Below are positions 7,730 to 49,218 of a stretch of DNA of 54,113 nt, piece by piece. The stretch is taken from IMG/VR virus record IMGVR_UViG_3300042868_006771, positions 1 through 54,113 of that record. One strand, written 5' to 3'. Below the pieces are notes generated by a model. The model was given only the letters and a program-made list of their open reading frames with translations, made no database searches and was not told the DNA's origin. The DNA is from a virus. Taxonomy: Duplodnaviria > Caudoviricetes. The translations under genes were made by a program, and so were the position numbers. The stretch's first letter is position 1, and every line of letters begins with the position of its first letter.

Positions 7730-8809
7730 ATGTATTCAACTACTGTCTATATCTATCAACAAATCATTCGGGTACTTTTGATTGACACCAGTGGTGGATA
7801 CTTTACTGCGAGGTACGACCCAGTGTACGCAAAAACTTTAACTGTTAACAAAGGTGTAGACAACGTGCTGTTGTTTGAATTCATCAATCAAGACCAAAAA
7901 CCTGTGAACATCACGGGCAGCACATTTCGATTCAGACTGTTGAACCAAACTGGTGATGAATTACTGATCGAAAAAGACATGACTGTGCTCAGTGCCAGTT
8001 TAGGCCGAGTCAAAGTTGTACTGGACACAGCAGACACCATCAATATCCTGGCACAACCCGGCAGTTACAGCATTGAGCGAACACAAGGCAATTACGTACA
8101 AGCCGCATTTACAGACGACAATGCTGGCGCTAGGGCCGACTGTGACATTGTGGACAGTGTGCTGCCCGAGTTCATTGCCAGCCAACCTGTGACTATTCCC
8201 ACGATAAATGGCAAAAATTCGTGGCCACAGCCTGGACCAAGTTCTTACCCAGACTGGGCATTGAACCCACAGCCACTGTCACGCAATTATCTTACAGAAT
8301 ACTACTCAAGTTATATCAACACCACAGGTGCCAGTTTGACCACAATCAAGTATGATCTGGATCATTACACCGGTACACTCAAAGTACAGGCAGCACAGGA
8401 TTACGAAGCTGTCTGGGTAGATGTCACAGAAAGCCGCGAGTATTTTGACGAGTCTGGTACCTTTTACATCAATGTTGTGGGCTTTCATCCCTTGTTAAGA
8501 CTGGCCATCAACAACAGCCAAGGCTATGGTGCAAGTGCAACTGCCACAGTGGTTGATGGAGTTGTAACTGGCATTGCTGTGAACAACGCTGGTTTGGGGT
8601 ACATGGCTGCACCATATGTTCAAATCTTGGGCAACGGTGCTGGTGCCACTGCTGTTGCTGCACCATTCACAGGTCCCAGCGGCATTGGACAAATCACTGT
8701 GACAAACGGCGGATCAGGTTATTTGCCACTTAACTTTGGTGGCACCGAAGCACAGGCTGTTACAGTGTTGATCACAACTGGCTACGTTACCAATATCTTT
8801 TATCGTTAA
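7730..8809 (+). CDS. virion structural protein (baseplate/fibre-associated)
   Basis: TAAATA at 7720; beta-rich; C-terminal GA.ATA...ITVTNGGSGY repeats typical of phage structural proteins. Confidence 0.6.
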   Translation: MYSTTVYIYQQIIRVLLIDTSGGYFTARYDPVYAKTLTVNKGVDNVLLFEFINQDQKPVNITGSTFRFRLLNQTGDELLIEKDMTVLSASLGRVKVVLDTADTINILAQPGSYSIERTQGNYVQAAFTDDNAGARADCDIVDSVLPEFIASQPVTIPTINGKNSWPQPGPSSYPDWALNPQPLSRNYLTEYYSSYINTTGASLTTIKYDLDHYTGTLKVQAAQDYEAVWVDVTESREYFDESGTFYINVVGFHPLLRLAINNSQGYGASATATVVDGVVTGIAVNNAGLGYMAAPYVQILGNGAGATAVAAPFTGPSGIGQITVTNGGSGYLPLNFGGTEAQAVTVLITTGYVTNIFYR

Positions 8810-18518: not shown

Positions 18519-18967
18519 CCCGTGAACAAAAATTAGAACGCTTTGCCGAGCGTGAACTCAAACGTGTGTACACTGAACTCATCATTGACGATGAACATGG
18601 TGGCTATGTGGCATTTGGACGTTATCATTTAAAACCTGAGTCTGCAGGCTTTGCTGTGTATCACAGTGATGATCTTGTGAGCATGTTCAGCAGTAAAAAG
18701 ACTGCTATGTCATGGTGCGTGGCAGATCACTTGCAACAATATAAATTAGCACAAAACATCCGTATACTAGACAACAAAAAACAATCACTTACGTCTGACA
18801 TCCACTGCCGTAGTGGACAAGCAGAACACAGTACACGCCCTGAGTTCCGTGAAATAGTGCGCACCAAACTTGCACCCAAAATTGAGAACCTTACACTGCT
18901 GAATCAAGAACTTGAAAAATGTTTAAATTCGGCTAAATATCTACAACTAAGAGGATTTGCCAAATGA
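18515..18967 (+). CDS. hypothetical protein
   Basis: coupled ORF. Confidence 0.7.
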   Translation: MTREQKLERFAERELKRVYTELIIDDEHGGYVAFGRYHLKPESAGFAVYHSDDLVSMFSSKKTAMSWCVADHLQQYKLAQNIRILDNKKQSLTSDIHCRSGQAEHSTRPEFREIVRTKLAPKIENLTLLNQELEKCLNSAKYLQLRGFAK

Positions 18968-19860
18968 AATTAACCGAACTGGCCACACCAAAAAAGAGCC
19001 GCCAAGTAGCCCAAGTATTTGAAAGTTACTTTGGTACCAAGATGCCTGTGAACCGACTCACAATGCGAGAAGCACATACCATGCTCAAACGTGTGCGTGG
19101 TGTGATTGCTGAACATCAGCGTAGCCCCAGCCGTCATACCAGTGAGCGCAACCCTGCTTACTTGAAACTTGTGATGATGGAACAAGCATTGACCAGTCGC
19201 ATCCGGGAAGAACAAGTTCCCATACAGCCTACTACTTCTAGCAGTGCCCCTACTACCGCTGCTACGACATCCAGTGTTAAGCCCGCAGTGGATGTCAAGG
19301 ATCCCAAATTGGCAGCAGCAATAAAGAAAAGTACAACTGGCCAAAATCTCACACCTGACGAACAAAAAATGGTTGCTGGTGCTGCGTTGATGACTGCCGA
19401 AAGCCGTTTGCGTAGAGCCTACAGCATGTTGAAAGAATCTGAAGTTCAGCAAGCACAAGTTGTGTTGGCTGCACAAGACATGGTAGACAAAATGCAATCA
19501 ATGTTGGAAGACACCACAGAGATGCAATTCAAAGAACTGCCTGCTCTAGTAGATTCAATCCGCAATCAAATTGGCATGGAACAAGCCACACAATTCAACA
19601 GTGATGTCACTGGTGCATTACAAGGTCTTGTGCAAAACTTACAAGGTGCCAAACAACAACTGGAAACCGCACTGGGTGTGGTCACAGGACAACCAGCTGC
19701 ACTAGACACCAGCATGGCTGCCAGTGGCATGCCAGGCGCAGTACCTCCACCAATGCCTGGTGCTGAGATGGGTGCAGATATAGGTGCAGATATAGGTGCT
19801 GAAATGGATGCTGAAGAACCTGCACCAGCAGGAGCCGCACTGGGCCGAGCACGTAGATAA
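18964..19860 (+). CDS. putative head core/scaffold-like protein
   Basis: MKLTEL N-terminus, internal (L/I)xE sites, acidic low-complexity tail ending LGRARR. Confidence 0.5.
   Translation: MKLTELATPKKSRQVAQVFESYFGTKMPVNRLTMREAHTMLKRVRGVIAEHQRSPSRHTSERNPAYLKLVMMEQALTSRIREEQVPIQPTTSSSAPTTAATTSSVKPAVDVKDPKLAAAIKKSTTGQNLTPDEQKMVAGAALMTAESRLRRAYSMLKESEVQQAQVVLAAQDMVDKMQSMLEDTTEMQFKELPALVDSIRNQIGMEQATQFNSDVTGALQGLVQNLQGAKQQLETALGVVTGQPAALDTSMAASGMPGAVPPPMPGAEMGADIGADIGAEMDAEEPAPAGAALGRARR
19759..19806 (+). repeat. in-frame 12-nt tandem repeat x4
   Basis: GAEM-GADI-GADI-GAEM. Confidence 0.85.
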
Positions 19861-20271: not shown

Positions 20272-20655
20272 ATGGCCTATTCAGAAAAAGTAATTGATCA
20301 CTATGAAAATCCACGTAATGTGGGCAAGTTTGAAATAGACGATAGCATTGGCACAGGCATGGTAGGAGCACCTGCTTGTGGTGATGTGATGAAATTGCAA
20401 ATCAAAGTTCAAGATGGAATTATAACAGATGCCAGGTTCAAAACATACGGATGCGGCAGTGCGATTGCCTCATCCTCTCTTGTTACCGAGTGGGTTAAAG
20501 GACGAACGCTTGACCAAGCGGCATCTCTTAAAAATTCAGAGATTGCTCAGGAACTCGCATTGCCACCAGTCAAGATTCATTGTTCTATTCTTGCTGAAGA
20601 TGCAATACGAGCAGCCGTAGAGGACTATCGTAAAAAGCATGATCTCACTCACTGA
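20272..20655 (+). CDS. iscU: Fe-S cluster scaffold IscU
   Basis: MAYSEKVIDHYENPRNVG, GAPACGD, GCGSAIAS, LPPVKIHC. Confidence 0.97.
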   Translation: MAYSEKVIDHYENPRNVGKFEIDDSIGTGMVGAPACGDVMKLQIKVQDGIITDARFKTYGCGSAIASSSLVTEWVKGRTLDQAASLKNSEIAQELALPPVKIHCSILAEDAIRAAVEDYRKKHDLTH

Positions 20656-20962
20656 CACTGCTAAAAACAAAGTACAAAAACTAGTTGAACTCAAAGGCTA
20701 TGCTGGCATACGCCTGGCAGTAAAAACCACAGGTTGCTCAGGGCTTGCTTATGTGCTAGAATATGTAAAACAATATGAGCCCGACCCCAGCACTATAAAT
20801 TATGCTCAGAACAATTTCTGTGTGCTGGTTGACAAAAAACATGATGTGTATTTGTCGGGCACACAAGTAGACTATGTACGCCAAGGCCTTAATGAAGGCT
20901 TTGAATTCACCAACCCCAATGAACGTGACCGCTGTGGTTGCGGAGAAAGTTTTAGAGTTTAA
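20639..20962 (+). CDS. iscA: Fe-S assembly A-type carrier IscA
   Basis: TTGCSGLAY, F.F.NPN...CGCGESF. Confidence 0.95.
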   Translation: MISLTDTAKNKVQKLVELKGYAGIRLAVKTTGCSGLAYVLEYVKQYEPDPSTINYAQNNFCVLVDKKHDVYLSGTQVDYVRQGLNEGFEFTNPNERDRCGCGESFRV

Positions 20963-21699: not shown

Positions 21700-23445
21700 G
21701 TGGCAATTGTACAAATATCACGAATCACCGCCCGCAAGGGTTTGCAAGTAGATTTACCCCAACCCTTGGCTGGTGCTGAACTGGGCTGGGCAGTGGATGA
21801 CCGTAGACTGTTCATTGGCAACGGCACACTGGAAGAAGGTGCTCCTGCAGTGGGCAACACTGAAATTCTCACAGAATATTCAGATATATTAGGTTTTGCT
21901 GACCAGTACACCTACCAAGGTGAAGCAGCCGGATACACCGTACAAACTGGTGCCACACCCAGCACACCTATTTCACAAAGCATACAAAGCAGGCTGGACA
22001 GTTATGCTGTGGTCACAGATTTTGGTGCCGTGGGCGATGGATCCACCGACGACACTGACGCTATCAATCGTGCGTTGTTCCAACTGTATTGTGTGCAAAA
22101 CAACACACAGGTGCGTAGAAGTTTGTTTTTCCCTGCTGGCACCTACATTGTTACAGACAGTGTTGTAATACCTAGTTTTGCCAGGCTGTATGGTGAAGGG
22201 GCCAACAGTAGCATAATCAGTTTCAACGTACAAAACTGGGCAGCCAATACTGCCTATGCTCAAGGAGTGCTGGTATATTATGTGACAAATGGCCTGTACT
22301 ATCGCAGCATAGCACCAGTACCTGTGGGGCTGGTCGGATTTCCGCCAGCATTGACTCTTTACTGGGCAGCGGAAGCATTGCCTAGTTATATTGCACAAAC
22401 TGCTGATGCACAAGGTAACACTGGAGTCAACATTCTCACAGCACCACAAAATATTGAAGTTACAGGCATGGCTTTTGAAACCAACCAACTCAACACAGGT
22501 ATCTTGATTGAGAAAGCCAAGAACTGCTCGTTCAACAATGTTGATGTGTTTGGGCCATTGACCACTGCTGACCTCACAACCGCAATTGACAATACCAAGG
22601 CCATTGACTGGAGCAGCACTTCTAGTTTGCCCTGCTCACAAATTGTGTTTGACAATTGTAGATTTTCAGGCTTTACCTATGCCGTCAACACAGCACAACA
22701 AATCAACGGTGCAGTGATCAGTAATGGACAATTTGATACCTTGTATCAAGGTGTGATCTTGGGTGGTGTGACACCGGTCAACGGTGGAGCCACTGGTGTG
22801 CGTGTGATGCACAATGTGTTTGACGATATCTATGAAGAAGGTATCTACATCAATGGTGTGAGTTTGAACGCTTCGGGATACAACATCTTTTATGATGTGG
22901 GCAACCACTTCAACAGCACCACCAGTCCTGCAGCACCTGTGATCACAATTGATGCCATCAACAATGTCAGCATTGGCGATATGTTTCAGCGTACCACTGC
23001 CTACAGCAGCACCTATCCTAGAATCAAAATCTATGCCACTGCCACTGCCACCATACCTGCCAGCATAGGCATAGACAGTGCAGCTCAGATACAAATGGGC
23101 AGTTTCATTAGAGAAACTGGACAACAGGCCACAATCACAGCCGGTGCCACCAATACCACATTGTTCACAGTGAGCACTACATTTATCAAAGCATTCAAAA
23201 TGGATTATACTATAATTGTGGAAACCAGTGCTAGAACCGGCACCATGACCATTGCCAATGATGCTGATGACTCAGCTGGTGATGGACTTAGTTACACTGA
23301 TGACTATGTGGAAAATTCCACTACCGGTGTCACACTCAATGTCACAGATGTTGGTGGAACAGTCACAGTTTCTTATGCGTCTGATTCCGGCAGGGCCGCT
23401 GGTACTATGTATTACAGTCTGACACACCTGGGCCGTAGCTATTAA
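21700..23445 (+). CDS. tail fibre/spike protein with pectate-lyase-like beta-helix
   Basis: ISRI..RKG...L..AELGW.VD.RRLFIG head; DFGAVGDGSTDDT.AINRA...FFPAGTY. Confidence 0.75.
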   Translation: MAIVQISRITARKGLQVDLPQPLAGAELGWAVDDRRLFIGNGTLEEGAPAVGNTEILTEYSDILGFADQYTYQGEAAGYTVQTGATPSTPISQSIQSRLDSYAVVTDFGAVGDGSTDDTDAINRALFQLYCVQNNTQVRRSLFFPAGTYIVTDSVVIPSFARLYGEGANSSIISFNVQNWAANTAYAQGVLVYYVTNGLYYRSIAPVPVGLVGFPPALTLYWAAEALPSYIAQTADAQGNTGVNILTAPQNIEVTGMAFETNQLNTGILIEKAKNCSFNNVDVFGPLTTADLTTAIDNTKAIDWSSTSSLPCSQIVFDNCRFSGFTYAVNTAQQINGAVISNGQFDTLYQGVILGGVTPVNGGATGVRVMHNVFDDIYEEGIYINGVSLNASGYNIFYDVGNHFNSTTSPAAPVITIDAINNVSIGDMFQRTTAYSSTYPRIKIYATATATIPASIGIDSAAQIQMGSFIRETGQQATITAGATNTTLFTVSTTFIKAFKMDYTIIVETSARTGTMTIANDADDSAGDGLSYTDDYVENSTTGVTLNVTDVGGTVTVSYASDSGRAAGTMYYSLTHLGRSY

Positions 23446-32338: not shown

Positions 32339-32350
32339 CACTGTAAATAT

Positions 32351-37053: not shown

Positions 37054-37907
37054 TCCTAGTAACCGGCGACCGCGGCTTTATCGGCAGCGAACTTAAACAG
37101 TATCTCATCCAGGCAGGACACGATGTACATGGTCTTGACTGGGACACACGTGGACGCACATACACAGCACAAACACCAGTAGAATGGATATTTCACATGG
37201 GTGCCATCAGCGAAACCAATGCTGACAACTGGGCGGATATTGTACGTAAGAACATAAAAGACACACAGGATTGGATAACAACTGCTGAACGGTGGCGATG
37301 TGGTATCACCTATGCGTCTAGTGCCAGTGTGTATGGTCCTTGGTCAAACAGTCCCGAATGGGGTCCAGTACAACCACAGCACATGTATGGTGTCAGCAAG
37401 TTGGCTATTGACAACTGGGTGGCCACGCAGAACTTTACAGTGCCTGTGCAGGGCATGAGATTCTTCAATGTATATGGGTGTAACGAAGGACATAAGGCAC
37501 AGCCCAGTCCTATACGTACATATATGAAACGAGCCATTGCAGGGCAACCACTCACTGTGTGGAATCACAATGGCCGCTTGGGCACAAGAGATTTTGTCAG
37601 CGTAGACGATTGTATCTCGGCTATGATGCAGTTGAAAGCGGCCAAGGTAAGTGGAGTATACAACATTGGCACCGGGCGACAACTTACGTTTGAGGACATT
37701 GCACACAGCGTACAACGCCGGTTTGACAATATACCAGTGGTATCAGAACCCATGCCCGAGCACATGGTAGAGAAATATCAGTGGGAAAGTTGTGCGGATT
37801 TAAATAAACTGCAATCCACAATATCTTGGAATCCACAGTCGGTGGATCAGTGGCTAGACAAAAACTTTGACACCCTTTATAATAAGATCATAAATGAAAA
37901 CACCTGA
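37050..37907 (+). CDS. NAD-dependent epimerase (ADP-heptose 6-epimerase HldD-like)
   Basis: VTGDRGFIGS, FHMGAIS.T, YASSASVYG, YGVSK, RFFNVYG..E.HK. Confidence 0.8.
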   Translation: MILVTGDRGFIGSELKQYLIQAGHDVHGLDWDTRGRTYTAQTPVEWIFHMGAISETNADNWADIVRKNIKDTQDWITTAERWRCGITYASSASVYGPWSNSPEWGPVQPQHMYGVSKLAIDNWVATQNFTVPVQGMRFFNVYGCNEGHKAQPSPIRTYMKRAIAGQPLTVWNHNGRLGTRDFVSVDDCISAMMQLKAAKVSGVYNIGTGRQLTFEDIAHSVQRRFDNIPVVSEPMPEHMVEKYQWESCADLNKLQSTISWNPQSVDQWLDKNFDTLYNKIINENT

Positions 37908-39105
37908 AACCTTAGACAACTGTAGTTTCTGCGGCAAGCACAAAGATAGTGTAGCCAAACTCATAGTAGGCAATGAAGTAAGCATCTGCAATGAGTGTGT
38001 GGACTTGTGTCAGACCTTGCTCAAAGACGAACTGCCTGAAAAATCAAAAGACATCACAAATGACACCTTGGATCCTAGATCCATTAAAGATCATTTGGAT
38101 CAATACGTAATTGGACAAGATCATGCCAAAATGGTGTTGAGCGTGGCCATTGCCAATCACTACAAACGCATAGCCAATGCAGATCCTGACACTGAAATTG
38201 AAAAAGCCAACATTCTCATGCTTGGGCCCACAGGCTCAGGTAAAACATTGTTGGCACGTACTGTGGCACGTTATTTGGATGTGCCATTTGTTATTGCAGA
38301 TGCCACTAGCTTGACCGAAGCAGGATATGTGGGCGACGATGTGGAAAGTTTGATCACAAGACTGTACACAGCCGCTGGTGGTGATGTGGCAAAAACACAG
38401 CGCGGCATTGTGTTCATTGATGAAATTGACAAGATCAGCCGACGTAGCGAGAGTGCCAGTATCACCCGAGATGTGAGTGGAGAGGGCGTACAACAAGCCT
38501 TGCTCAAATTGGTAGAAGGCACCAAGTGCAGAATCACACCACAAGGTGGTCGCAAGCATCCAGCAGGTGAAACTGTGGAAATTGACACCGCCAACATACT
38601 ATTCATTGCCGGTGGTGCGTTTGTGGGCCTGGACAACATTGTAAAGAGCCGTGTGAAAGGTACATCAATTGGATTCTCTGCACAGGTTGTGGCAGACAGC
38701 ACCAGTGTGACCTTGGACAAAACCACACCTGAAGACCTGATCAAGTTTGGCATGATCCCAGAGTTTGTGGGACGTTTCCCCAGTTGGGTTGCACTGGCAG
38801 AACTCAGCAAAGCAGACTTGGTACGCATCTTGCAAGACGTCAAACACAGTTATGTCAGCCAGTATCAATGGATATTCAACCGTGATCAAGTTGAATTAGA
38901 ATTCAGCGCAGACAGCTTGGATTTGATTGCCGAGCGTACTATCGCCAACAAAACTGGTGCCCGTGGCTTGCACAGTGAACTTGAACGTGTGCTGTTGCCA
39001 CACATGTACAATTTAACACGCTATCGCAAAGGCGGAATACAGACTCTAAATATCAACACTGACCTGGTAAATAATCCTGAATCACTTCGGGAAATAAATG
39101 AATAA
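37894..39105 (+). CDS. clpX: ClpX ATPase
   Basis: CSFCGK/CNEC Zn domain, GPTGSGKT, GYVG, RDVSGEGVQ, RKH, IGF loop. Confidence 0.96.
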   Translation: MKTPETLDNCSFCGKHKDSVAKLIVGNEVSICNECVDLCQTLLKDELPEKSKDITNDTLDPRSIKDHLDQYVIGQDHAKMVLSVAIANHYKRIANADPDTEIEKANILMLGPTGSGKTLLARTVARYLDVPFVIADATSLTEAGYVGDDVESLITRLYTAAGGDVAKTQRGIVFIDEIDKISRRSESASITRDVSGEGVQQALLKLVEGTKCRITPQGGRKHPAGETVEIDTANILFIAGGAFVGLDNIVKSRVKGTSIGFSAQVVADSTSVTLDKTTPEDLIKFGMIPEFVGRFPSWVALAELSKADLVRILQDVKHSYVSQYQWIFNRDQVELEFSADSLDLIAERTIANKTGARGLHSELERVLLPHMYNLTRYRKGGIQTLNINTDLVNNPESLREINE

Positions 39106-39322
39106 ACCACACGCTAGATCAGTATTAGTCCAAGACGGTAACATTGAAAAGGCCCTGCGCAAGTTCAAGAAAAAAGTACAGAATTCTGGCATACTAAATG
39201 ATCTCCGCGAACGTGAATTTTACATCAAGCCCACTACAGCCCGCAAACTCAAACGCAGTGCAGCCAAGAATCGCTGGCGCAAACAACTAGAAGCCCAACA
39301 ACTCCCGCCACGCACCTACTGA
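39098..39322 (+). CDS. rpsU: ribosomal protein bS21
   Basis: IEKALRKFKKKV...G.L..LREREFY.KPT..RK. Confidence 0.92.
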   Translation: MNKPHARSVLVQDGNIEKALRKFKKKVQNSGILNDLREREFYIKPTTARKLKRSAAKNRWRKQLEAQQLPPRTY

Positions 39323-39594: not shown

Positions 39595-39658
39595 TTGTAG
39601 TGCCCATGGTGGGGCTACAATTCAAAGTCATCTTGCTTAATAAAGGAGAAAACAAATG
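39595..39658 (+). promoter_or_regulatory. ROSE-like RNA thermometer in the hsp20 5' UTR
   Basis: TCTTGCT (39631-37) pairs with SD AGGAGA (39644-49) with a bulged G; 5' hairpin at 39595-39620. Confidence 0.6.
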
Positions 39659-40114
39659 ACAAAAACTCTAACCCTTCGCACATTCGATCTTCCCGCAATT
39701 CACAAATTTGGTATCGGTTTCGATAACTTGTTTGATGATCTCATGCGTGTCAACGCCCAACAAGGCAACACCAACTATCCACCTTATGACATTGTGCAAA
39801 TCAATGATGATGAGTACATGATTAGTTTGGCTGTGGCTGGCTTTGGTCATGACAACCTAAATATAACCAAGGACAAAAAGACCTTGGTCATTGAAGGCAA
39901 ACACAGCCGTGAGACTGTGGACAGCGAAGACAGCACTGCAAAATACTTGCACAAAGGCATCAGCGAACGAAGTTTCCGCAGGGAATTTCAACTGGCTGAT
40001 CACGTGGAAATCAGCAATGCACATCTTGAACTTGGTATCTTGAATGTTCACTTGAAACGTGAAGTTCCTGAAGAAGCCAAACCAAAGACCATTGCGATCT
40101 CTTACAAAGAGTAA
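39656..40114 (+). CDS. ibpA: small heat-shock protein (IbpA-like)
   Basis: IGFD, NYPPYDI, AVAGF, YLHKGI..R.F.R.F.L, G.L. Confidence 0.93.
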   Translation: MTKTLTLRTFDLPAIHKFGIGFDNLFDDLMRVNAQQGNTNYPPYDIVQINDDEYMISLAVAGFGHDNLNITKDKKTLVIEGKHSRETVDSEDSTAKYLHKGISERSFRREFQLADHVEISNAHLELGILNVHLKREVPEEAKPKTIAISYKE

Positions 40115-40153: not shown

Positions 40154-40179
40154 ATTGAGCAACAATGCAAGGAATAGAA

Positions 40180-40491
40180 ATGGCACAGAGCGACGTTCGC
40201 ACACGAATCAAACCATCAGAGGCTGTGAAAGAGCCACCTATGTTCAAAGTTATCTATCTCAATGATAACCAAACCACAATGGACTTCGTAGTAGACAGTT
40301 TGATTGAATATTTTGACTACACTGCCGAGACTGCAGAACAAATTACAGTGGATATTCATCAAGCAGGGCAAGCCACAGTGGCCGTATTACCTTATGAAAT
40401 TGCCGAACAAAAAGGCATTGAAGTAACACTTAGCGCACGGTCACAGAGCTATCCACTGCAAATTAAGCTGGAACCCGAAACAGTGAATTAA
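40180..40491 (+). CDS. clpS: ClpS adaptor
   Basis: PPMFKVIYLNDNQTTMDFVV, IH..G.A, EIAEQK, YPL. Confidence 0.92.
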   Translation: MAQSDVRTRIKPSEAVKEPPMFKVIYLNDNQTTMDFVVDSLIEYFDYTAETAEQITVDIHQAGQATVAVLPYEIAEQKGIEVTLSARSQSYPLQIKLEPETVN

Positions 40492-41276
40492 TCGTCTATG
40501 ACAATACGCAGGGGGTGATACACATACTGGCGCCATTCAGTGTCGCCCCTACCCCTGCAATTGTTGACAAATCTTATCCCTTGACGTATTTGATCCACAC
40601 TCCCATGGTAATGACCAAAGCACCAGGTGTGCAATTTGTTTTCTGTGTCGGCGCTCAATGCCTGCATCATGAATCCATTGCCCATGGTGTTGAATCGCAA
40701 GGTGTCAGCAATGCCAATGTCGTGAGCAATTAAACTTGAATTAGGTACAGTGTGTGTTACACAAACAATTTTTTTGACATCTGCATGAGTTTGCAATCGC
40801 TTGATGCTGCTGATCATGTACTTGGCATCTGTTGTGGCCAATCGACCCACAGTTTTGGCAACCAACGCAGAAACTTGACACTGATCTTGAAACCACAATG
40901 AAGTCTGTTCAGCATCTATTGACGGATCTAAATCATAAGTCCACCAGCCATTGGTTCCCAGTATGGCCACACCGTCTACTACCACAACATTGTCTTGCAA
41001 AAATACCACGTTGGGAATTTTTTTTATGCGGCGAACTAGATCGGCGTAGCTGGCATTCAGATCATCATAGTAATATCGATGTTCATCATTGCCATCAACA
41101 TAAAACACTGCTTGATAGCATGTGGCAAGATGACGCAATGTATTGATCACCACTTCGCGATCACGTGCAAGGTCACCGGCCACAACACAATGGGCACTGG
41201 TCGCCAGTCCAGTCCAGTCAAATTCAGGCCAAGTTTCGGCGTGAAGGTCAGAAATTAAATCAAATGCAAAACTCAT
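40488..41276 (-). CDS. calcineurin-like metallophosphoesterase
   Basis: SDLH, AGD, GNDE, THT.P, FGHYH. Confidence 0.85.
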   Translation of the reverse strand: MSFAFDLISDLHAETWPEFDWTGLATSAHCVVAGDLARDREVVINTLRHLATCYQAVFYVDGNDEHRYYYDDLNASYADLVRRIKKIPNVVFLQDNVVVVDGVAILGTNGWWTYDLDPSIDAEQTSLWFQDQCQVSALVAKTVGRLATTDAKYMISSIKRLQTHADVKKIVCVTHTVPNSSLIAHDIGIADTLRFNTMGNGFMMQALSADTENKLHTWCFGHYHGSVDQIRQGIRFVNNCRGRGDTEWRQYVYHPLRIVIDD

Positions 41277-41300
41277 GATACATATTTAAAAGGATCGCAC

Positions 41301-41977: not shown

Positions 41978-42313
41978 TCAGGGTGCGAATGTATCACTCA
42001 TGATATACACAGTAACACCAACACGCTGCCGTTCATTGAAGATATCTCGCCAGGCAGGCATTTTGCGAAATCCATTGGTCACCCGATCGTACACAAAGTC
42101 AGGTTGGTAGCTGGAAGATTTGAGTTTGGGTGCCTTGCCAGGATACGCACTGTTGCCGTGGCAATGTCGACACTGACCGTCCCATACCTGCTGACCTAAC
42201 GCAATCAAAGAGGTATCCTTCATCACAGTGTCTGTGAATGCTGGTGCCGATTCTTGGCAGTAGGCAGCATGACTAAAGATATAAAATAACAACACCACTG
42301 CCGCGTTTTTCAT
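41978..42313 (-). CDS. monoheme class I cytochrome c
   Basis: signal peptide, G..VW...CRHCHG, P.L, distal MPAW; RBS AGGAGA. Confidence 0.85.
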   Translation of the reverse strand: MKNAAVVLLFYIFSHAAYCQESAPAFTDTVMKDTSLIALGQQVWDGQCRHCHGNSAYPGKAPKLKSSSYQPDFVYDRVTNGFRKMPAWRDIFNERQRVGVTVYIMSDTFAP

Positions 42314-42338
42314 AGTGGCTTCTCCTGTGTAATATTTA

Positions 42339-43337
42339 TTACACAACAGGCACTAAATTATTTCGAAATATTTCCCAGGCAGTTTGCCATGACCAACGCT
42401 GACTGCCGTCCCAAACTCGATGTCTGGGCAAGAACAAACAATCTGTTACTGCTTGTTTCAAGTAAGGATTCATACATCCTGTGATGCCTTCGTCTATGAC
42501 ATCCAATGGCCCAGTAGCAGGATATGCAGCCACCGGAGTTCCGCAGGCCATGGCTTCGATCATCACAATGCCAAATGTTTCCCACTGACTGGGAAACACA
42601 AACACATCTGCCAGGTTGTAGTAGTAGGCTAGATCAGCACCAGTTTTGAATCCCACAAACTCCACGTCAGGATAACGTGACTGTAACTCTGCACGATAAG
42701 GACCATCGCCTACTAAAATCTTGCGTGAGTTGGGATAACTCATGCCACAAAAGTCATCCAAGTTCTTTTCTTTGCTGACTCTACTTACACATACCAAGGT
42801 GGTCTTGGCATTGGGCCGGCGTTCTCTGGGATAAAATATCTCTCTATCCACACCACGTGTCCATGGTATGATGTCACCGTCGAACCCATGCTCGCGCAAC
42901 TCCTGTACCATGGTTTCAGTCGTGGTCAGCACTTTTCCTGAGTGTTTGTGAAACCAACGCACTAGAGGCCAAGTAATGGCTTCAGGTATGCCAAACAGTT
43001 TTCTAAGTCCTTCTGGAAATTTAGTATGATAAGCAGTGTTGTAGCGATAATGATGTTTGTCAAGATATTGTCTAACACGCAAACCCACAGGACCCTCGGT
43101 GGCGATGTGGATATGATCCGGACGGATCTCCTCAAGTATCGCGCCCACATTCCGGGGAAGGGCAATCTTGACTTGGTTGTAGCCAGGGCAATCAAAGTAG
43201 CGGAACCGCCCGGGATCAAGATATACAACACGATAGTTGTCGCGAATCGCATGCGCCTCAATATTTTTGTAAGTGGTAACCACGCCATTGATCTGATCCG
43301 GTAAGTTGTCTGTGACTATTAAGATTGTTTTTGACAT
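42339..43337 (-). CDS. GT4 glycosyltransferase, Agt-like glycolipid synthase
   Basis: IVTD..P.QINGVV.T, HIATEGP.G, TAYHT.FPE, RVSKEKN, VFPS..ETFG.V.IEAMACGTPV. Confidence 0.8.
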   Translation of the reverse strand: MSKTILIVTDNLPDQINGVVTTYKNIEAHAIRDNYRVVYLDPGRFRYFDCPGYNQVKIALPRNVGAILEEIRPDHIHIATEGPVGLRVRQYLDKHHYRYNTAYHTKFPEGLRKLFGIPEAITWPLVRWFHKHSGKVLTTTETMVQELREHGFDGDIIPWTRGVDREIFYPRERRPNAKTTLVCVSRVSKEKNLDDFCGMSYPNSRKILVGDGPYRAELQSRYPDVEFVGFKTGADLAYYYNLADVFVFPSQWETFGIVMIEAMACGTPVAAYPATGPLDVIDEGITGCMNPYLKQAVTDCLFLPRHRVWDGSQRWSWQTAWEIFRNNLVPVV

Positions 43338-43492
43338 TGCCCCGTTACCTTGAATGTTTTAAACTTTAAATCATATCGCATGGTCGCCAACACCTGTTCG
43401 CAACTGAGCTGATTTGGGAAAACTAATTCTATTCTTCCGGGTTGATCTTGCGGATTCGTGCTGTGTACTGCTATCAATATCATCAACCACAT
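43319..43492 (-). CDS. 57-aa two-Cys protein overlapping the plcP 3' end
   Basis: RBS AGGAG; MWLMILIAVH...SCEQ...GQCQKQS*. Confidence 0.55.
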   Translation of the reverse strand: MWLMILIAVHSTNPQDQPGRIELVFPNQLSCEQVLATMRYDLKFKTFKVTGQCQKQS

Positions 43493-44243
43493 TGTCAGTC
43501 TCCTGTGTCCAAGTTACAATTTCCCATGTGCCATCATGGCGTTCTACCAAGGCTGTGCATGACTCTACCCAGTCGCCATCATTCATGTATGCAACGCCAT
43601 CTATATCTTTGATCTCTGCGTGATGTATGTGTCCGCAGATCACACCGTCGAATCCGCGTTTCCGGCAGTAGTCAGCAAGATTACGTTCAAAGTGAAATAT
43701 AAAGTCTACTGCTTTTTTGACCCGGTGTTTAAGGAACAGGCTAAGGCTAAAGTACCCAAAACCCATGCGATGACGAATCCAATTAATCCTAGTATTGAGC
43801 CCAAGAATGAAATCATATGCTTTGTCTCCCAACATTGCCAACCATGGCGCCAGTCTAGTGATGCCGTCAAACATGTCACCATGTACCACAAGATAATGCC
43901 GACCGTCTGCACCTATGTGTTCTGTTTGATTTACCAATTCAATTATGCCGAATCCAATGCCATACTGCATGAAGGGTCTTAGAAACTCGTCGTGATTACC
44001 AGCTACATATACAACCCTAGTACCACGCTTGCTATGACCCAGCACACGGCGAATAACATTAGTGTGCGACTGTTTCCATCGCCATTTGTTTTGTTTGATT
44101 TTCCATGCATCTATGATGTCTCCCACAAGATACAGCGTTTCGCAAGTGTTGTGTTTGAGAAAGTTGTTGAGTTTGTCAGCCTGGCTGTCTTTGGTGCCAA
44201 GATGAACATCGCTGATGAATATACTGCGATAAGTTTTTTGCAT
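43371..44243 (-). CDS. plcP: PlcP-like phospholipase C (LpxH2-type metallophosphoesterase)
   Basis: SDVHLG, LVGDIID.W, GNHDE (His, not the LpxH Arg), HGD.FD, CGHIH, N.GDWVES; next to an Agt-like GT. Confidence 0.75.
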   Translation of the reverse strand: MQKTYRSIFISDVHLGTKDSQADKLNNFLKHNTCETLYLVGDIIDAWKIKQNKWRWKQSHTNVIRRVLGHSKRGTRVVYVAGNHDEFLRPFMQYGIGFGIIELVNQTEHIGADGRHYLVVHGDMFDGITRLAPWLAMLGDKAYDFILGLNTRINWIRHRMGFGYFSLSLFLKHRVKKAVDFIFHFERNLADYCRKRGFDGVICGHIHHAEIKDIDGVAYMNDGDWVESCTALVERHDGTWEIVTWTQETDNVVDDIDSSTQHESARSTRKNRISFPKSAQLRTGVGDHAI

Positions 44244-44264
44244 CTAGTATTTACAACCAGATGT

Positions 44265-44293
44265 GTTACATTAGCGTTACAGTTTTATGTAAG
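44265..44293 (-). promoter_or_regulatory. Pho-box-like triple repeat upstream of plcP
   Basis: minus strand CTTACAT-aaaa-CTGTAAC-gcta-ATGTAAC, 11-nt period. Confidence 0.65.
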
Positions 44294-44294
44294 T

Positions 44295-44453
44295 CTAAAT
44301 TCTAACCAAGGTCCATTTAGTTGTAAATGACTTGCCCTCGGCTCGGCGTTTAGCAATCTTCTGGAACTCCTGCATGCGTAGTTCCCGAATAGTTTTCTCG
44401 TCGTGGTCGAAGCAAGCCCGATACAACTTGGAAATCAATTTCCGTTGTTTCAT
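44295..44453 (-). CDS. 52-aa basic protein
   Basis: RBS GGAGG; MKQRKLISKLYRACFDHDEK...KWTLVRI*. Confidence 0.6.
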   Translation of the reverse strand: MKQRKLISKLYRACFDHDEKTIRELRMQEFQKIAKRRAEGKSFTTKWTLVRI

Positions 44454-44507
44454 AACCCACCCTCCATTAGTGTACAGATACTTATACTACATCACACAAT
44501 TTGTGAT

Positions 44508-44828
44508 CTAATTCTGCAATGTTTCTTGCCTGGCTGCTTGCAATTCTTTGCGTAGAGTATTGTAATCTTCTAGTGTAGCAACGGAAGGCACAGTAGACTT
44601 CATATAGGCAGGCGGTACAGTCTGCCATTCAGATTCACTCACACCGGCCACAATCATGGCAGTGTATTCGTGTCCGTCGCTGGTGTGCAGTTTTACTCGT
44701 TCAAATCCTTGTGGAGTCTTTGCTGCGTTCATACAGGCCTGTGCCAGTGCTCTAAGAGCCGCTGGGTCTGCTATGATGTGCAAATCTTGTTGGGGTTCAC
44801 TGTGAGGGTATATGTGTAGTCTAGCCAT
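44508..44828 (-). CDS. hypothetical protein coupled to the DnaE-like gene
   Basis: TAATG overlap with the upstream stop. Confidence 0.7.
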   Translation of the reverse strand: MARLHIYPHSEPQQDLHIIADPAALRALAQACMNAAKTPQGFERVKLHTSDGHEYTAMIVAGVSESEWQTVPPAYMKSTVPSVATLEDYNTLRKELQAARQETLQN

Positions 44829-46504
44829 TATGTTATGTGCTCAATGTCCTTTAGTTTCATACGTTTGCTTTTGTACACTTTAACACATTCACTACTGTTT
44901 GTATAGTCTAAACGGCCTTTGCCCCACAAGATTGGTTGATCGCTAAAGGACATGGCATGTGGCACTATCACATCTAGATAACGACCGTTGCCGGTGCCCA
45001 GGGTGGCAAAGGTTATGTAGTCTTTGGCGCCGCTTTTAAACACACGATAATTGGCCACCAATCCCAAAAACTCCACTTCGCCGGGACGTCTTATTTCAGT
45101 ACAGGCAGGAATAAAATTACTGCTGCTCCAACGACCAGTTCTTGCTAGTTCAGCACACTCTCCACCTTGGCTGGGCGAAGGCACAGCTCCGGCCAGTTTG
45201 GCTTCTTGATAATACACCCAACTGCTGTAACTGCCTTCGCAGTGTTTCAAACAGGCTCGCCAGAAAGCCTCAGGGTTATGTGCCTTTTGATAGGCCAAGG
45301 CCCAGATCAATCTGCCCAGATTGGTGGCATGAGCTCGACACAGTCCAAAATGACTGAGTTCACGTAGTGACGCCAACACACTATCACGTTTGGGATGATC
45401 ACCAATCAATTGCATAAACTCATAGATCTTTTCCTCATTGCGTTTGGCAAATGCTCTGCGCCACATGTCGGCAGTGTACATGTCACAACCCAGGATATCA
45501 GCAATCATGGTGATAGCATCATCCTCAAACACCACTGTGTCTTGCTGTATGGTATCAGCACTCCAGTCTTGGAACGCACTGGCTTTGCGTCTGCCTTGTG
45601 TGGCCACTGGACGGATCAAGGCAGTGGCCAATGTACAGTCACTTTTGCTCTTGACTTTTAAAGCGCGAAACAGTCTTTTCATAGCTGGTGATTCGCCTTG
45701 AGTCACACCCAACACATCACCACGACCCAGCAAGTCACTGGTCTTTTCATCATGTTCAGGATAGTCTGTTAGTGGACGCTGATCTATTTCCCACAACTGG
45801 CTCAGTCCACGATTGGCCAAGATATCTATTTTGAAATGTTCAAGATCTTCTGTTTCGTATTTGTCTAACAAGATTTGATTGTTGCCATTGATCAGGCTTT
45901 TGGGCACAGCACGATCAAAAATTAAGATGCCACCACAGTGTTTTGATATACAGCGTTTTTTGCCCATAAGTTTGGCTGTGACTCGTTCTGCTTCCTGTAT
46001 CTCTTCTGGAGGCAATACTTGGCTGAATTCAAAGCCACGTTTGAGTGTGCCTTTGGCTCCTAGCCTTTTGGCGGCTTCTCTCTTGGCAGACTTTTCTTTG
46101 TACATTACATAGTTGCTGACCCTGGCACTTTGTCCCGGCCAACGACGGAATATGCGATTCATCACAGTGGCCTGTTGCCAGTGTGGAAAGTCAAGATCAA
46201 TATCGGGCAGATCGTCACGTTTGGGATTCATGAAACGTGCTATGGGGATATTCTCTGCCACTGGGTCAAGATCGCTGATGCCCATGAGCCAGCACACAAG
46301 ACTTGAGCCTGCTGATCCTCGAGTGATGTGTGGTATGTCTGTGGTTAAATCTAATATTTCTCTCACACGCAAGAAGTGTCGAGAAAAATTTTGATCTCTA
46401 ATTAGTTCTAGTTCTTCTGCCAGTCTGTGTGCGTATTTGGGATCTTGGGGTAATTCTCTTCTAAATTGTTTTACTAGTTGTTCAAGTTCTCGATATCTAT
46501 CCAT
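44828..46504 (-). CDS. dnaE: PHP-less compact DNA polymerase III alpha-like protein
   Basis: RL.EEL..I, RGSAGSSLV, DLDP, RFMNP.R...PDIDLDF, KHCGG, KIDIL, IRP, AYQKAH. Confidence 0.85.
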   Translation of the reverse strand: MDRYRELEQLVKQFRRELPQDPKYAHRLAEELELIRDQNFSRHFLRVREILDLTTDIPHITRGSAGSSLVCWLMGISDLDPVAENIPIARFMNPKRDDLPDIDLDFPHWQQATVMNRIFRRWPGQSARVSNYVMYKEKSAKREAAKRLGAKGTLKRGFEFSQVLPPEEIQEAERVTAKLMGKKRCISKHCGGILIFDRAVPKSLINGNNQILLDKYETEDLEHFKIDILANRGLSQLWEIDQRPLTDYPEHDEKTSDLLGRGDVLGVTQGESPAMKRLFRALKVKSKSDCTLATALIRPVATQGRRKASAFQDWSADTIQQDTVVFEDDAITMIADILGCDMYTADMWRRAFAKRNEEKIYEFMQLIGDHPKRDSVLASLRELSHFGLCRAHATNLGRLIWALAYQKAHNPEAFWRACLKHCEGSYSSWVYYQEAKLAGAVPSPSQGGECAELARTGRWSSSNFIPACTEIRRPGEVEFLGLVANYRVFKSGAKDYITFATLGTGNGRYLDVIVPHAMSFSDQPILWGKGRLDYTNSSECVKVYKSKRMKLKDIEHIT

Positions 46505-46593
46505 TAATTTGCTGCCTTAGTTTGTTTTAGGAAAATACTTATGGTATGATATGCTACCATAGAAAGATTTTGGCTACCAACTCATGCAGTCGT

Positions 46594-46617
46594 AAAAAAA
46601 GGCCCTTCTGGGCCTTT
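46594..46617 (-). terminator. Rho-independent terminator after the porin gene
   Basis: aaaggccc-ttct-gggccttt with a U-tract on the minus strand. Confidence 0.8.
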
Positions 46618-46667
46618 AGTACTGGTTACGAGTTCCAGCGCCGCTCAATCGTTGCGGTCGGTTTTAA

Positions 46668-48050
46668 TTAAAAGTTGATTTGTGTGCGAACACTGACCAC
46701 ATTTTCTTTAGTGGTTGTGCCCATGTCAGTGGTGTCCAATGGTGCAATTGCTGTGTCAAATTTGGTGGTAGCATAGTTGGCCATGATTCTAGCATTGCTG
46801 TTAAGAATCCAGTTTACACCGTAGGTCACAGTTCTAGCACCAGTTGAGTTTTGTGTGCGGTTGCCTGTCACAGCACCGTCAACACTGTTGCTGCCAGCGG
46901 CTGAATATTCAGAAACACGCACACCCACTTGCCATGCACCGTGACCATTGCCCACAACACCGCCGTAGTCTTTCATGAACACCGACGATGGGGTGATGCC
47001 ACCGAATGCACCACCTTTGTAACTCTTGGCAAAGTCTTCACCAGTGATGTTGTACATGGCTTCTACATACTTGGCCTGAACACGAACATCTTGTGTGGCC
47101 ACACAAGCAGTGGTCACGCAACTGGTAGCACCTGTAACATAGTTATAGGTGTTGGCCGAAGCTGAGTAGTTGCTGTCAAAGTTTTCTGCTTGCAGTTTAA
47201 ATGGACCATGTGCCAGGGCCAGTTCAATACCGTTCATGGTACGCTGAATGCTCACTGCATTGTTGGCAGTGGCACCATAGGCTGCTGTGTCAATCTTGTC
47301 ACCACCAATCTGGGCACGATAAACATTGCTCATACCACGTGCTTCTGAACGCATGGACACAATGGTACCGCGTGTGGTTGTGCTGGGAGCATCCACAGTG
47401 TTGCCTGAAGTTGTGGGCACCAACTGTGACCGTCCACCAGTACGTGCCACACCCAAGTGCAACACAGTGTTGGGTCTAGCAATCAATTGACCAAAGTTCA
47501 CAGCCACACGTGCCGCATACTGTGAGCCCAAGGTGTTGTCGTTGTTACTTTCAGTGAAGTCACCTTGAAATGCTGACAATCCATACACTAAACCAGCACT
47601 TGGTTCGCCGTGTAGCATCACGCCCAAACGTTTACCTGGTACCAATTGATTGCCATATGAACGTTCCATAAAGCCAATGTTGTTAGAGCTAGTTTGCTCT
47701 TCCAAGCTGAAAGGCTGTTTGAATCTACCTGTGCGTAACTGTGCTGACTTATTAAAGCCATAATTGACAAACGCAGTGTCAATAAAGTTAGTAGTACCGC
47801 CAACAGCATTGCCCACCAACTCATAGTTGATCTGCTTGTTGATACTGCCATTGATACCAATTCTAGCTCTACGCAGTTCAAAGTTGTCGCCCACGCTGGC
47901 ACTGTCACGGTCCACAGAGTCTGTTAGATCTGTTTGGAATGCTCGTGTGTCAAAATGCACACGGCCTGTGACCTTGGCATCCACCTGTGCCATTGCTGGC
48001 GATGTCAGGGCCACAAATACTGCAGCCAAGACTAATTTCGTAAATTTCAT
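46668..48050 (-). CDS. phosphate-selective porin OprO/OprP family
   Basis: signal peptide, FELRRARIG, GRFKQPFSLE..TSS....FMER, Y...TGE, GVNW.LN, C-terminal Phe. Confidence 0.85.
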   Translation of the reverse strand: MKFTKLVLAAVFVALTSPAMAQVDAKVTGRVHFDTRAFQTDLTDSVDRDSASVGDNFELRRARIGINGSINKQINYELVGNAVGGTTNFIDTAFVNYGFNKSAQLRTGRFKQPFSLEEQTSSNNIGFMERSYGNQLVPGKRLGVMLHGEPSAGLVYGLSAFQGDFTESNNDNTLGSQYAARVAVNFGQLIARPNTVLHLGVARTGGRSQLVPTTSGNTVDAPSTTTRGTIVSMRSEARGMSNVYRAQIGGDKIDTAAYGATANNAVSIQRTMNGIELALAHGPFKLQAENFDSNYSASANTYNYVTGATSCVTTACVATQDVRVQAKYVEAMYNITGEDFAKSYKGGAFGGITPSSVFMKDYGGVVGNGHGAWQVGVRVSEYSAAGSNSVDGAVTGNRTQNSTGARTVTYGVNWILNSNARIMANYATTKFDTAIAPLDTTDMGTTTKENVVSVRTQINF

Positions 48051-48076
48051 AGTTTCTCCTTTAGATTTACTTTTGT

Positions 48077-48104
48077 ATTATAACATATTATGTAGTGTTG
48101 TCAA
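48077..48104 (-). promoter_or_regulatory. sigma70 promoter for the porin gene
   Basis: TTGACA-16nt-TATAAT with extended TG. Confidence 0.7.
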
Positions 48105-48115
48105 TACCACAGCAG

Positions 48116-49135
48116 TTATTTTTTGATCTGTGACCAAACACGGTCACGAATCTGTTGAGTCAGAACATCTGGCAACGGCACGTAGTCTAGATCCAGTGCG
48201 GCCTTTTGTCCATTCTTAAATGCCCAGTCAAAGAATTTCAATGCTTCGGCACTTTGTTTACGATCTGTGGGATCCTTGTACATGAGAATAAAACTAGCAG
48301 TGCTCACTGGCCACACTGCGTCGCCCTTTTGATCCACAATGCTCAGGCCCATACCAGGCACACTGAACCAATCTGCACCAGCAGCCGCGGCAGCAAAGGT
48401 GGTGTCATCTGGTGATACCCAGCGACCATTGCGGTTCTGCATCTGCATGAACACCAGTTTGTTTTTCTTCACATACGCATACTCAACATAGCCGATGCTA
48501 CCTTTAATACGTGCCACATTGGCAGCAACACCTTCATTGCCTTTGCCACCCACAGAACTTGGTGCAGGCCATTTTACAGCAGCACCACGACCCACACGTT
48601 CCAACCAGGCAGGACTGGCTGTGCTGAGATAGTCAGTCCAGTTAAATGTGGTACCTGAACCATCAGCACGATGTACAACGGTAATGGTTTGATCTGGCAA
48701 CACCTTGCCGGGATTGAGGGCCTGAAGTCGAGCATCATTCCACTTGGAGATGTCGCCCAAGAAAATTTCTGCCAGCACTGGACCGGTGACTCTGAGTTCA
48801 CCAGGTTTAAATCCCTGTAGATTCACAATGGGCACAGTGCCGCCAATGATGGCAGGAAACTGTACCATGCCTTCTTTTTCTAAATCTGCACCTGACATGG
48901 GTGCATCTGTAGCACCAAATATCACAGTCTTGGCTTTGATCTGTCTGATGCCACCTGAACTGCCGATACTTTGGTAGTTCAATTGAACATCGTGTTTTTC
49001 GCTGTAGATTTCAGCCCACTTGCTATAAATGGGAAAGGGGAAAGTTGCGCCTGCCCCAGTGATGGTGTTTTGAGCATTTGCTGACGGACTCAGCAAATAT
49101 AGTGTTGCGGCCAACAAGGCCAAGATTTTTTTCAT
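48116..49135 (-). CDS. pstS: phosphate ABC transporter substrate-binding protein PstS
   Basis: GAGATFP.P.Y.KW, YQSIGSSGG, FGATD, HRADGSGTT, GKGNEGV, IGYVEY. Confidence 0.96.
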   Translation of the reverse strand: MKKILALLAATLYLLSPSANAQNTITGAGATFPFPIYSKWAEIYSEKHDVQLNYQSIGSSGGIRQIKAKTVIFGATDAPMSGADLEKEGMVQFPAIIGGTVPIVNLQGFKPGELRVTGPVLAEIFLGDISKWNDARLQALNPGKVLPDQTITVVHRADGSGTTFNWTDYLSTASPAWLERVGRGAAVKWPAPSSVGGKGNEGVAANVARIKGSIGYVEYAYVKKNKLVFMQMQNRNGRWVSPDDTTFAAAAAGADWFSVPGMGLSIVDQKGDAVWPVSTASFILMYKDPTDRKQSAEALKFFDWAFKNGQKAALDLDYVPLPDVLTQQIRDRVWSQIKK

Positions 49136-49189
49136 GTGTTTTCCTTTGTGAATTTGTGCGATTGCACAATAATATTTAAACACAAAGAT

Positions 49190-49218
49190 ATTACAGTAGT
49201 GTTACAGTTTCTTGACTG
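49190..49218 (-). promoter_or_regulatory. Pho-box-like triple repeat upstream of pstS
   Basis: minus strand CAGTCAA-gaaa-CTGTAAC-acta-CTGTAAT, 11-nt period. Confidence 0.7.

Follow-up and report, generated by a model that had tools for sequence, protein, structure and literature searches.

Candidate phosphate-starvation promoters of a lake-water jumbo phage that join Pho boxes to a phage TAAATA element

Introduction

The late promoters of bacteriophage T4 share the 8-bp consensus TATAAATA. Reviews of T4 transcription describe a TATA box eight base pairs long that occupies the -10 position with no accompanying -35 element, and they place the gp33 protein at the flap site of sigma region 4 (PMC2988020, PMC7892883). 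In a quite separate setting, one study reports that phosphate genes borne by cyanophages behind putative Pho boxes are induced in the phosphate-starved host, and it includes PhoB gel shifts as well as a caution against relying on Pho boxes predicted in phages (PMC10976474). In bacteria, an arrangement of plcP followed by a glycosyltransferase gene, with a predicted Pho box upstream, has been described (Sebastian et al., PMC4796936). The present analysis concerns a 54,113-nucleotide stretch of tailed-phage DNA (IMG/VR record IMGVR_UViG_3300042868_006771; the whole stretch is referred to below as 'the window'), in which the genes pstS and plcP are each preceded by a Pho-type box placed at a fixed distance from the hexamer TAAATA.

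The reading proposed for these two elements, at a probability of roughly 45%, is that they are phosphate-starvation promoters of a jumbo phage, built upon a -35-less TAAATA core that belongs to the phage (rather than upon the -10 element of its host) and activated by the phosphorylated host regulator (PhoB~P). A literature search on phage plcP, phage Pho boxes and phage pstS yielded, among the papers listed, neither an account of plcP in phages nor one of the present architecture, and the word 'phage' is absent (0 times) from the main text of PMC4796936.

Results

Two promoters with one architecture

Both promoters lie on the minus strand. Upstream of plcP, the two direct repeats CTGTAAC (44282-44276) and ATGTAAC (44271-44265), joined by gcta and thus in an 11-nucleotide (nt) period, make up a Pho box at 44265..44282; the TAAATA core element is found at 44248..44253, 11 nt (44264-44254) past the box, and is followed by ctag and then by the ATG at 44243. 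Upstream of pstS, the repeats CTGTAAC (49207-49201) and CTGTAAT (49196-49190), joined by acta with the same 11-nt period, form a box at 49190..49207, again 11 nt (49189-49179) from TAAATA (49173..49178), from which a 37-nt leader extends to the ATG at 49135. A preliminary description of the window, prepared from its letters alone, had given these minus-strand positions and the 11-nt spacing at both genes, and these were found to be correct on rereading. It had also described the box as triple, which is an overstatement: two strong repeats in an 11-nt period are present in each promoter, and the distal in-phase heptamer, CTTACAT at 44287..44293 (set off from CTGTAAC by aaaa) upstream of plcP and CAGTCAA at 49212..49218 (set off by gaaa) upstream of pstS, matches just 4/6 positions of the core hexamer in both.

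In each promoter the box takes the place of a -35 element, and a promoter scan reported no TTGACA-like -35 at either. Where promoters activated by PhoB carry a -10 of the sigma-70 type (TAnnnT), the window has TAAATA instead; and where T4 late promoters carry eight conserved base pairs, the two sites read gTAAATA and tTAAATA, TATAAATA itself occurring once in the whole window.

When the window was scanned with at most one mismatch for the composite TGTMAY-N5-TGTMAY-N11-TAAATA, two matches were recovered, both exact, and none appeared in 100 shuffles, by which a chance origin of the composite was rejected. Exact copies of TGTMAY-N5-TGTMAY are likewise confined to 44265-44281 and 49190-49206. 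The box alone, with up to one mismatch, is not over-represented (3 matches in the window, 8.2 expected), so that what makes the arrangement significant is that two boxes are exact, that they form a composite with TAAATA, where they are placed and that they are conserved. As to placement, the composite stands before both phosphate-related operons of the window and nowhere else there. The assignment of the boxes to the PhoB type, made in the preliminary description, gains from their position upstream of a PstS that passes the NCBIfam cut-offs and of a PlcP-like/GT4 pair, and may be taken as probable on those grounds.

With TAAATA 4 nt before the ATG and no Shine-Dalgarno sequence, the plcP mRNA is probably leaderless. 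The predicted 5' leader of pstS, by comparison, contains AAGGA ahead of the ATG and, just downstream of TAAATA, an inverted repeat (49154..49169, minus strand; TTGTGC aatc GCACAA, TTGTGCaatcGCACAA) that in relatives reads TGTGC..GCACA or TGTGT..ACACA, in what looks like a compensatory change. Predicted folding energies of -4 kcal/mol or lower were obtained for 9/37 pstS leaders (mean z-score -0.74); the hairpin is carried by only part of the relatives and does not define the promoter. The inverted repeat might stabilise the 5' end as a hairpin, or else act as an operator.

Conservation of the box and its spacing

The upstream regions of 80 viral pstS, 80 viral plcP and 80 cellular pstS genes were compared, the viral loci being the best 80 of 343 stretches with PstS relatives and the best 80 of at least 593 with PlcP relatives. 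Each locus was anchored on whichever two TGT[AC]A[CT] hexamers, spaced in an 11-nt period, made the best pair, and offsets were counted from the box. The 55 distinct viral pstS regions yielded 42 boxes, with TAAATA at offset 11 in 33, at offset 21 in eight and at offset 10 in one, and with TAnnnT at offset 10 in eight. Among the 70 distinct viral plcP regions there were 36 boxes, followed by TAAATA at offset 11 in 27 and at offset 21 in seven (two had none), and by TAnnnT at offset 10 in none. The cellular regions, all 80 of them distinct, gave 75 boxes, not one of which has TAAATA within 34 nt and 74 of which have TAnnnT at offset 10. Taken together, TAAATA is found at offset 11 in 60 of the 78 distinct box-bearing viral promoters, at offset 21 in 15 and at offset 10 in one, and is absent from two. 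The viral offsets of 11 and 21, set against the complete lack of TAAATA in the cellular promoters (0/75), indicate a composite that is conserved, specific to phage, and quantised in steps one helical turn apart. The Burkholderiales pstS promoters that make up the cellular set are themselves uniform, with a -10 of the form TA(A/G/C)A(G/T)T exactly 10 nt past the box in 74/75.

A scan of every base of the 160 viral loci located 91 distinct exact boxes, of which 70 have TAAATA at offset 11 and 10 at offset 21; offsets of 0, 10 and 32 occur once each, and eight boxes have no TAAATA. The spacing proposed in the preliminary description as something to be looked for in related phages is therefore conserved in them. 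Single-linkage clustering at 70% identity reduces the offset-11 boxes to 38 clusters and those at offset 21 to 4. In a 359,563-bp viral record rated 100% complete (G002), with which the window shares syntenic blocks, exact boxes number exactly two; each is followed by TAAATA at offset 11, and they precede the same genes, pstS and plcP, which are there 170 kb apart. In an information profile, the repeats and TAAATA form the rich columns and the spacers vary. An in-phase third repeat matching at least 4/6 positions precedes 48% of the pstS and 28% of the plcP promoters of relatives, compared with 10% at out-of-phase control positions.

Two further observations were made among the viral loci. In another group of plcP genes (15 loci), the Pho box and TAAATA are replaced by a different conserved leader, GGTCAC..GGTGAC and then CTGGAnCCGTAACCAG, which may be an RNA element or an operator; an Rfam search of the window and of four of these loci matched no family. 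At four other loci, a third gene family is preceded by a Pho box whose TAAATA lies at offset 11 (a fifth locus has the box without TAAATA); its product is an acidic, Ala/Val/Glu-rich protein of ~214 amino acids (aa) with no assigned function, and a homologue was found neither in the window nor in G002.

TAAATA as a promoter-like class

Hexamer counts in the 45-nt regions upstream of open reading frames (ORFs) place TAAATA well beyond the two Pho-type promoters. With 16 occurrences where 1.0 would be expected, and 1 antisense, it is the most enriched upstream hexamer of the window and, ribosome-binding motifs apart, the most enriched in G002 (91 seen, 10.8 expected, 17 antisense), and it lies within 60 nt upstream of 17/77 ORFs in the window and of 103/432 in G002. 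Base frequencies around 74 of the G002 sites display no -35-like conservation upstream. TAAATA is accordingly a real, strand-specific and -35-less upstream motif of the lineage, much as it had been portrayed. The statement that it precedes many structural genes in this stretch requires more qualification: only three of the 17 ORFs concerned have a structural-like annotation (7730-8809, 18964-19860 and 21700-23445), the remainder comprising a ligase, S21, ClpS, phosphoesterases and ORFs without an assignment, whereas in G002 the portal, baseplate-wedge and other virion genes are preceded by TAAATA. The hexamer is also found ahead of non-structural genes, and the 'late' or 'structural' label is only partly justified within the window.

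The distance from TAAATA to the start codon, measured for 108 sites in G002, has two peaks, one at 4-7 nt (29 sites) and another at 16-21 nt (33 sites); at sites in the second peak, a Shine-Dalgarno sequence stands between TAAATA and the ATG. Five sites in the window fall at 4-7 nt before a start codon. Start codons lying 1-7 nt past TAAATA with no Shine-Dalgarno sequence are seen in the window for the hexamers at 32344, 35567, 41288, 7720 and 44253. The pattern suggests, from the sequence, that many transcripts of this phage lineage lack a leader.

Near-perfect TTGACA/TATAAT promoters form a separate class (5 in the window, 28 in G002), and because the two classes coexist, TAAATA is not simply the -10 element of sigma-70 promoters as written in this lineage. 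In 5/28 of the sigma-70 promoters of G002, TATAAT lies exactly 6 nt from the ATG. If transcripts of both kinds are leaderless, then TAAATA, at 4-5 nt from the ATG (21 sites), would lie 1-2 nt nearer to the start site than does TATAAT, and a spacer of 11 nt would keep the distance from box to start site about as it is in hosts, with the box ending near -22/-23.

A candidate late sigma factor

The phage sigma factor of the gp55 type that the preliminary description had invoked is found in the lineage rather than in the window. A gp55-like protein of ~300 aa is encoded by five related records, G002 among them, which together include 4/4 of the near-complete relatives, and was not found in four related fragments. 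It matches phrog_12791 (E = 4e-71 to 2e-74) and phrog_234 (~1e-22), is 42% identical to a PA5oct protein annotated as a late sigma factor, and bears an N-terminal extension of ~170 aa. A Pfam search of the G002 protein matched no family. A search of five related records for sigma-70 region 2 (PF04542) produced one sub-threshold match, with stop codons, and the window ORFs that were scanned included no response-regulator gene.

Genes behind the boxes

The pstS gene (48116..49135, minus strand) encodes a phosphate-binding protein of 339 aa that scores 392 bits against the NCBIfam PstS model, with its cut-off of 339, and clears both NCBIfam PstS equivalog cut-offs. Directly after it lies a gene of the phosphate-selective porin O/P family (46668..48050, minus strand; Pfam Porin_O_P, E=1.4e-39), which has no Pho box and possesses instead its own perfect sigma-70-type promoter in the interval between the two genes (48077..48104, minus strand; TTGACA, 16 nt, TATAAT, with TG). 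No match to the porin gene was found in G002.

The plcP-like gene (43371..44243, minus strand) encodes an LpxH-related metallophosphoesterase of 290 aa (Pfam Metallophos, E=5e-11) that, at 46.5 and 37.6 bits, falls short of the NCBIfam LpxH cut-offs of 134 and 190. The next gene is an agt-like glycosyltransferase of family GT4 (42339..43337, minus strand; Pfam Glyco_trans_1_4, E=8e-23), so that plcP, GT4 gene and upstream Pho box together have the layout expected of a PlcP-Agt lipid-remodelling operon, as which they may be putatively identified. Downstream of the GT4 gene is a cytochrome c-like ORF (41978..42346, minus strand; Pfam Cytochrome_CBB3, E=1.7e-13) with its own TAAATA at 42338. A second metallophosphoesterase gene (40488-41276, minus strand) has TAAATA at 41288, 6 nt before its ATG, and no Pho box. 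Cellular homologues of plcP, at 47-54% identity, are present in 39/61 sampled genomes of the family; their ORFs extend far upstream or trail another gene, which makes them unsuitable as comparators for the phage plcP promoters.

Phage lineage and host setting

The window is the entire virus record, with a completeness rating of 11% (54 kb), and is part of a ~350-kb PA5oct/RaK2-like jumbo phage of lake water. Of its 78 ORFs, 42 match G002 in syntenic blocks, and the G002 major head protein shares 65-68% identity with its counterparts in Vibrio phage 2.275.O, Pseudomonas phage PA5oct and ~350-kb Escherichia phages. The stretch is contained in 24 sequencing runs, mostly of lake-water DNA (at least 21 lake-water runs), and a search of a phage collection for near-identical DNA gave no match to the window.

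The closest cellular relatives of the window PstS, at 70-78% identity, are those of Limnohabitans, Acidovorax, Hydrogenophaga, Polaromonas and other Burkholderiales. An origin of the window from a T4-like cyanophage was considered and rejected, given that the identity of its PstS to the cyanophage proteins is 36-38%, compared with 70-78% to those of Comamonadaceae.

Every gene between 40.5 and 50.7 kb lies on the minus strand. Host-like auxiliary genes elsewhere in the window encode ribosomal protein S21 (39098-39322), ClpX (37894-39105), ClpS (40165-40491), Hsp20 (39656-40114) and an IscU and IscA-like pair for Fe-S assembly (20272-20962). Between the two phosphate operons lies a fragment of DnaE (the alpha subunit of Pol III; 558 aa, 44828-46504, minus strand) that comprises polymerase core and finger domains only and has no match in G002, and a small ORF (5639-6199, plus strand) matches a 'DNA polymerase' family of PHROG; the two may represent a split or mobile polymerase piece.

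Discussion

A proposed mechanism and its alternatives

According to the reading favoured here, host PhoB~P would bind the two direct repeats that occupy the -35 position, the proximal repeat ending ~22-23 nt ahead of the start site, and would there activate RNA polymerase positioned on TAAATA, such that pstS and the plcP-agt lipid-remodelling genes switch on in an infected cell that is short of phosphate. The polymerase would, at least late in infection, carry the gp55-like late sigma factor of the lineage (the possibility to which this report leans), and the plcP message would be leaderless or nearly so. The more specific proposition, that PhoB~P directly activates a polymerase whose gp55-like sigma factor has no region 4, whether from the -35 position or from one turn further away (offsets 11 and 21), and in doing so replaces the clamp and gp33 of T4, is advanced tentatively and is the more doubtful of the two. 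What speaks for a hybrid of this kind is that the host-type -10 has been lost in 60/78 promoters while their boxes were kept; that the seven plcP boxes at offset 21 have no TAnnnT at offset 10; and that perfect TATAAT hexamers are made elsewhere in the lineage. There is also a precedent, as PhoB is required at promoters of the alternative sigma factor VreI (PMC4971064). The term 'hybrid architecture' used in the preliminary description is a fair one, because the likely hosts use a different -10 element and a different spacing.

A number of points weigh against this interpretation. In the mechanism known for PhoB, it is sigma-70 that is recruited (PMC4971064, citing Makino 1996 and Blanco 2011), and the gp55 protein of T4 is without a region-4 part, a role that is taken by gp33 (PMC2988020). 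No sigma gene is present among the ORFs of the window (54 kb, 11% complete), and searches for gp33 and gp45 (phrog_254 and phrog_223), for which no positive control was available, found each in 0/5 related records. The base preceding TAAATA differs between the two kinds of site, being T in 37/60 (A in 5/60) of those linked to a box and A in 41/74 of the generic ones, which makes the box-linked sites atypical members of the TAAATA class. In PA5oct the hexamer is enriched just 3.6-fold (67 seen, 18.8 expected, 27 antisense) and has no leaderless peak, which lends weak support to a TAAATA rule extending across the lineage. In most phage repeats the sequence is TGTAAC/T, as against TGTCAC in the boxes of hosts; eight of the 42 pstS promoters have a host-like TAnnnT at offset 10 in addition to TAAATA at offset 21, so that PhoB acting with sigma-70, on the one hand, and TAAATA, on the other, can be separate elements. 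Finally, three runs of RNA or possible RNA contain only contigs that are 90-95% alike to the stretch.

Several of these points are accommodated by a model of two overlapping promoters, in which PhoB~P works early and with host sigma-70 only (TTAAAT or TAAATA serving as a weak -10), the gp55-like sigma acts later and independently of PhoB, and the fixed spacing results merely from the use of a single A/T-rich stretch by both. Such a model agrees with the established partnership of PhoB and sigma-70 (PMC4971064) and with the lack of region 4 in sigma factors of the gp55 type; it would explain the eight pstS promoters just mentioned (all of the offset-21 pstS cases) as unfused pairs, and the frequent T before TAAATA as one that creates TTAAAT in the host register, at offset 10. 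TAAATA is moreover found near the plcP ATG at loci without any box (three examples were noted). The model has difficulty with the elements themselves, however: hosts keep both an A at position 2 and a T at position 6 of the -10 (74/75), of which TTAAAT is without the first and TAAATA without the second, in a lineage quite capable of making TATAAT, and its plcP promoters at offset 21 provide no host-type -10 to overlap with (0/36 plcP boxes have one at offset 10). It is regarded as a serious possibility, if a somewhat improbable one. A less likely account would treat these as ordinary PhoB/sigma-70 promoters, with TAAATA as an A/T-rich -10 for host sigma-70 throughout and the gp55-like sigma reading something else. 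A box at -35 with a spacing of about 10 nt is indeed the classical Pho arrangement (PMC4971064), and the published set of PA5oct promoters consists of TATAATA/TTGAC motifs only, as presented in the text of PMC7318152; yet TAAATA is used by 0/75 of the cellular promoters, stands without a -35 signal ahead of portal and baseplate genes in G002, and exists alongside a distinct class of near-consensus sigma-70 promoters.

It is also conceivable, although distinctly improbable, that the repeats are bound by a different protein (of the OmpR/PhoB family, or encoded by the phage) or are non-functional relics of captured genes. The preference of the phage for TGTAAC would suit such a view, given that cellular repeats read TGTCAC/T, with C at core position 4 in 74/74 distal and 73/74 proximal hexamers. 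Against it, the repeats supply the most conserved columns, between spacers that vary, and are kept in 38 clusters at offset 11; in the window and in G002 alike, phosphate-related genes are the only ones with such a box in front of them, and the scan for response-regulator genes described above offers no phage-encoded binder in the window. The least probable suggestion is that TAAATA is a signal for translation initiation that substitutes for a Shine-Dalgarno sequence and has no part in promoters. The sharp peak at 4-7 nt before start codons (29/108 sites in G002, five in the window) is what such a signal would produce, but the second peak of 33 sites, with Shine-Dalgarno sequences between hexamer and ATG, is not, and neither is the hexamer of pstS, 37 nt upstream of a start codon that has its own AAGGA; and the fixed register with the Pho box would be left unexplained.

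Should the hybrid reading be correct, phage 'late' transcription of phosphate genes would be conditional on the phosphate status of the host, and plcP would be expressed from a leaderless mRNA. The arrangement offers a natural test of how an activator that replaces the -35 can work with a sigma factor lacking the part for reading it or, alternatively, an example of two promoters compressed into one. The layout is widespread in lakes (343 viral stretches have PstS relatives, and at least 593 have PlcP relatives), and the genes under it, which are pstS, plcP-agt and, in some relatives, one further gene of unassigned function, make up a small 'Pho regulon' of the phage. Judged by their promoters, these phages seem to tie gene expression to the phosphate hunger of the host, which is of relevance to infection in phosphorus-limited lakes.

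Comparison with known systems

The classical PhoB-dependent sigma-70 promoters (those of E. coli pstS and phoA and of Burkholderiales pstS) share with the phage promoters two 7-bp repeats with an 11-bp period that replace the -35, a distance of about one helical turn to the -10, and Pho-regulon genes downstream (PMC4971064). The phage promoters depart from them in a spacer of 11 rather than 10 nt and in repeats of TGTAAC rather than TGTCAC, and from those of Burkholderiales also in the core, which is TAAATA (at offset 11 in 60/78 phage and in 0/75 cellular promoters) rather than TAnnnT. Bacterial plcP-agt operons likewise have a glycosyltransferase gene after plcP and a predicted Pho box upstream (PMC4796936); that of the window differs in being borne by a phage, in its TAAATA core and in its start of the leaderless type.

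The T4 late promoters, which are served by gp55, gp33 and gp45, resemble those described here in having an A/T-rich box in the -10 position without a -35, and relatives of the window encode a sigma factor of the gp55 family. In the phage promoters, however, only TAAATA is conserved and not an 8-bp box, the sigma factor of the relatives is a protein of ~300 aa with a ~170-aa N-terminal extension, and homologues of gp33 and gp45 were not found (in a search without a positive control); a host response regulator bound to upstream DNA is not part of the T4 late system. At the VreI promoters of Pseudomonas aeruginosa, a Pho box likewise lies upstream of a promoter that is not of the sigma-70 type and PhoB is required; but VreI is an extracytoplasmic function sigma factor that has both region 4 and a -35 element, and the box is upstream of that -35 rather than in its place (PMC4971064).

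Cyanophages, in which pstS, phoA and other genes are under the control of host PhoBR, also have phage-borne phosphate genes with putative Pho boxes. The cyanobacterial box, PyTTAAPyPy(T/A) with 8-bp repeats, is not matched by the CTGTAAC and CTGTAAT of the window, and the passages considered from that study (PMC10976474) report no late-type core element fused to the box at a fixed distance. The window belongs with a different class of host, and plcP-agt and a porin gene are among its genes. That host PhoB controls phosphate genes of phages is already known from cyanophages, and the layout described here, in which the box is fused to a core of the phage itself, represents a different solution.

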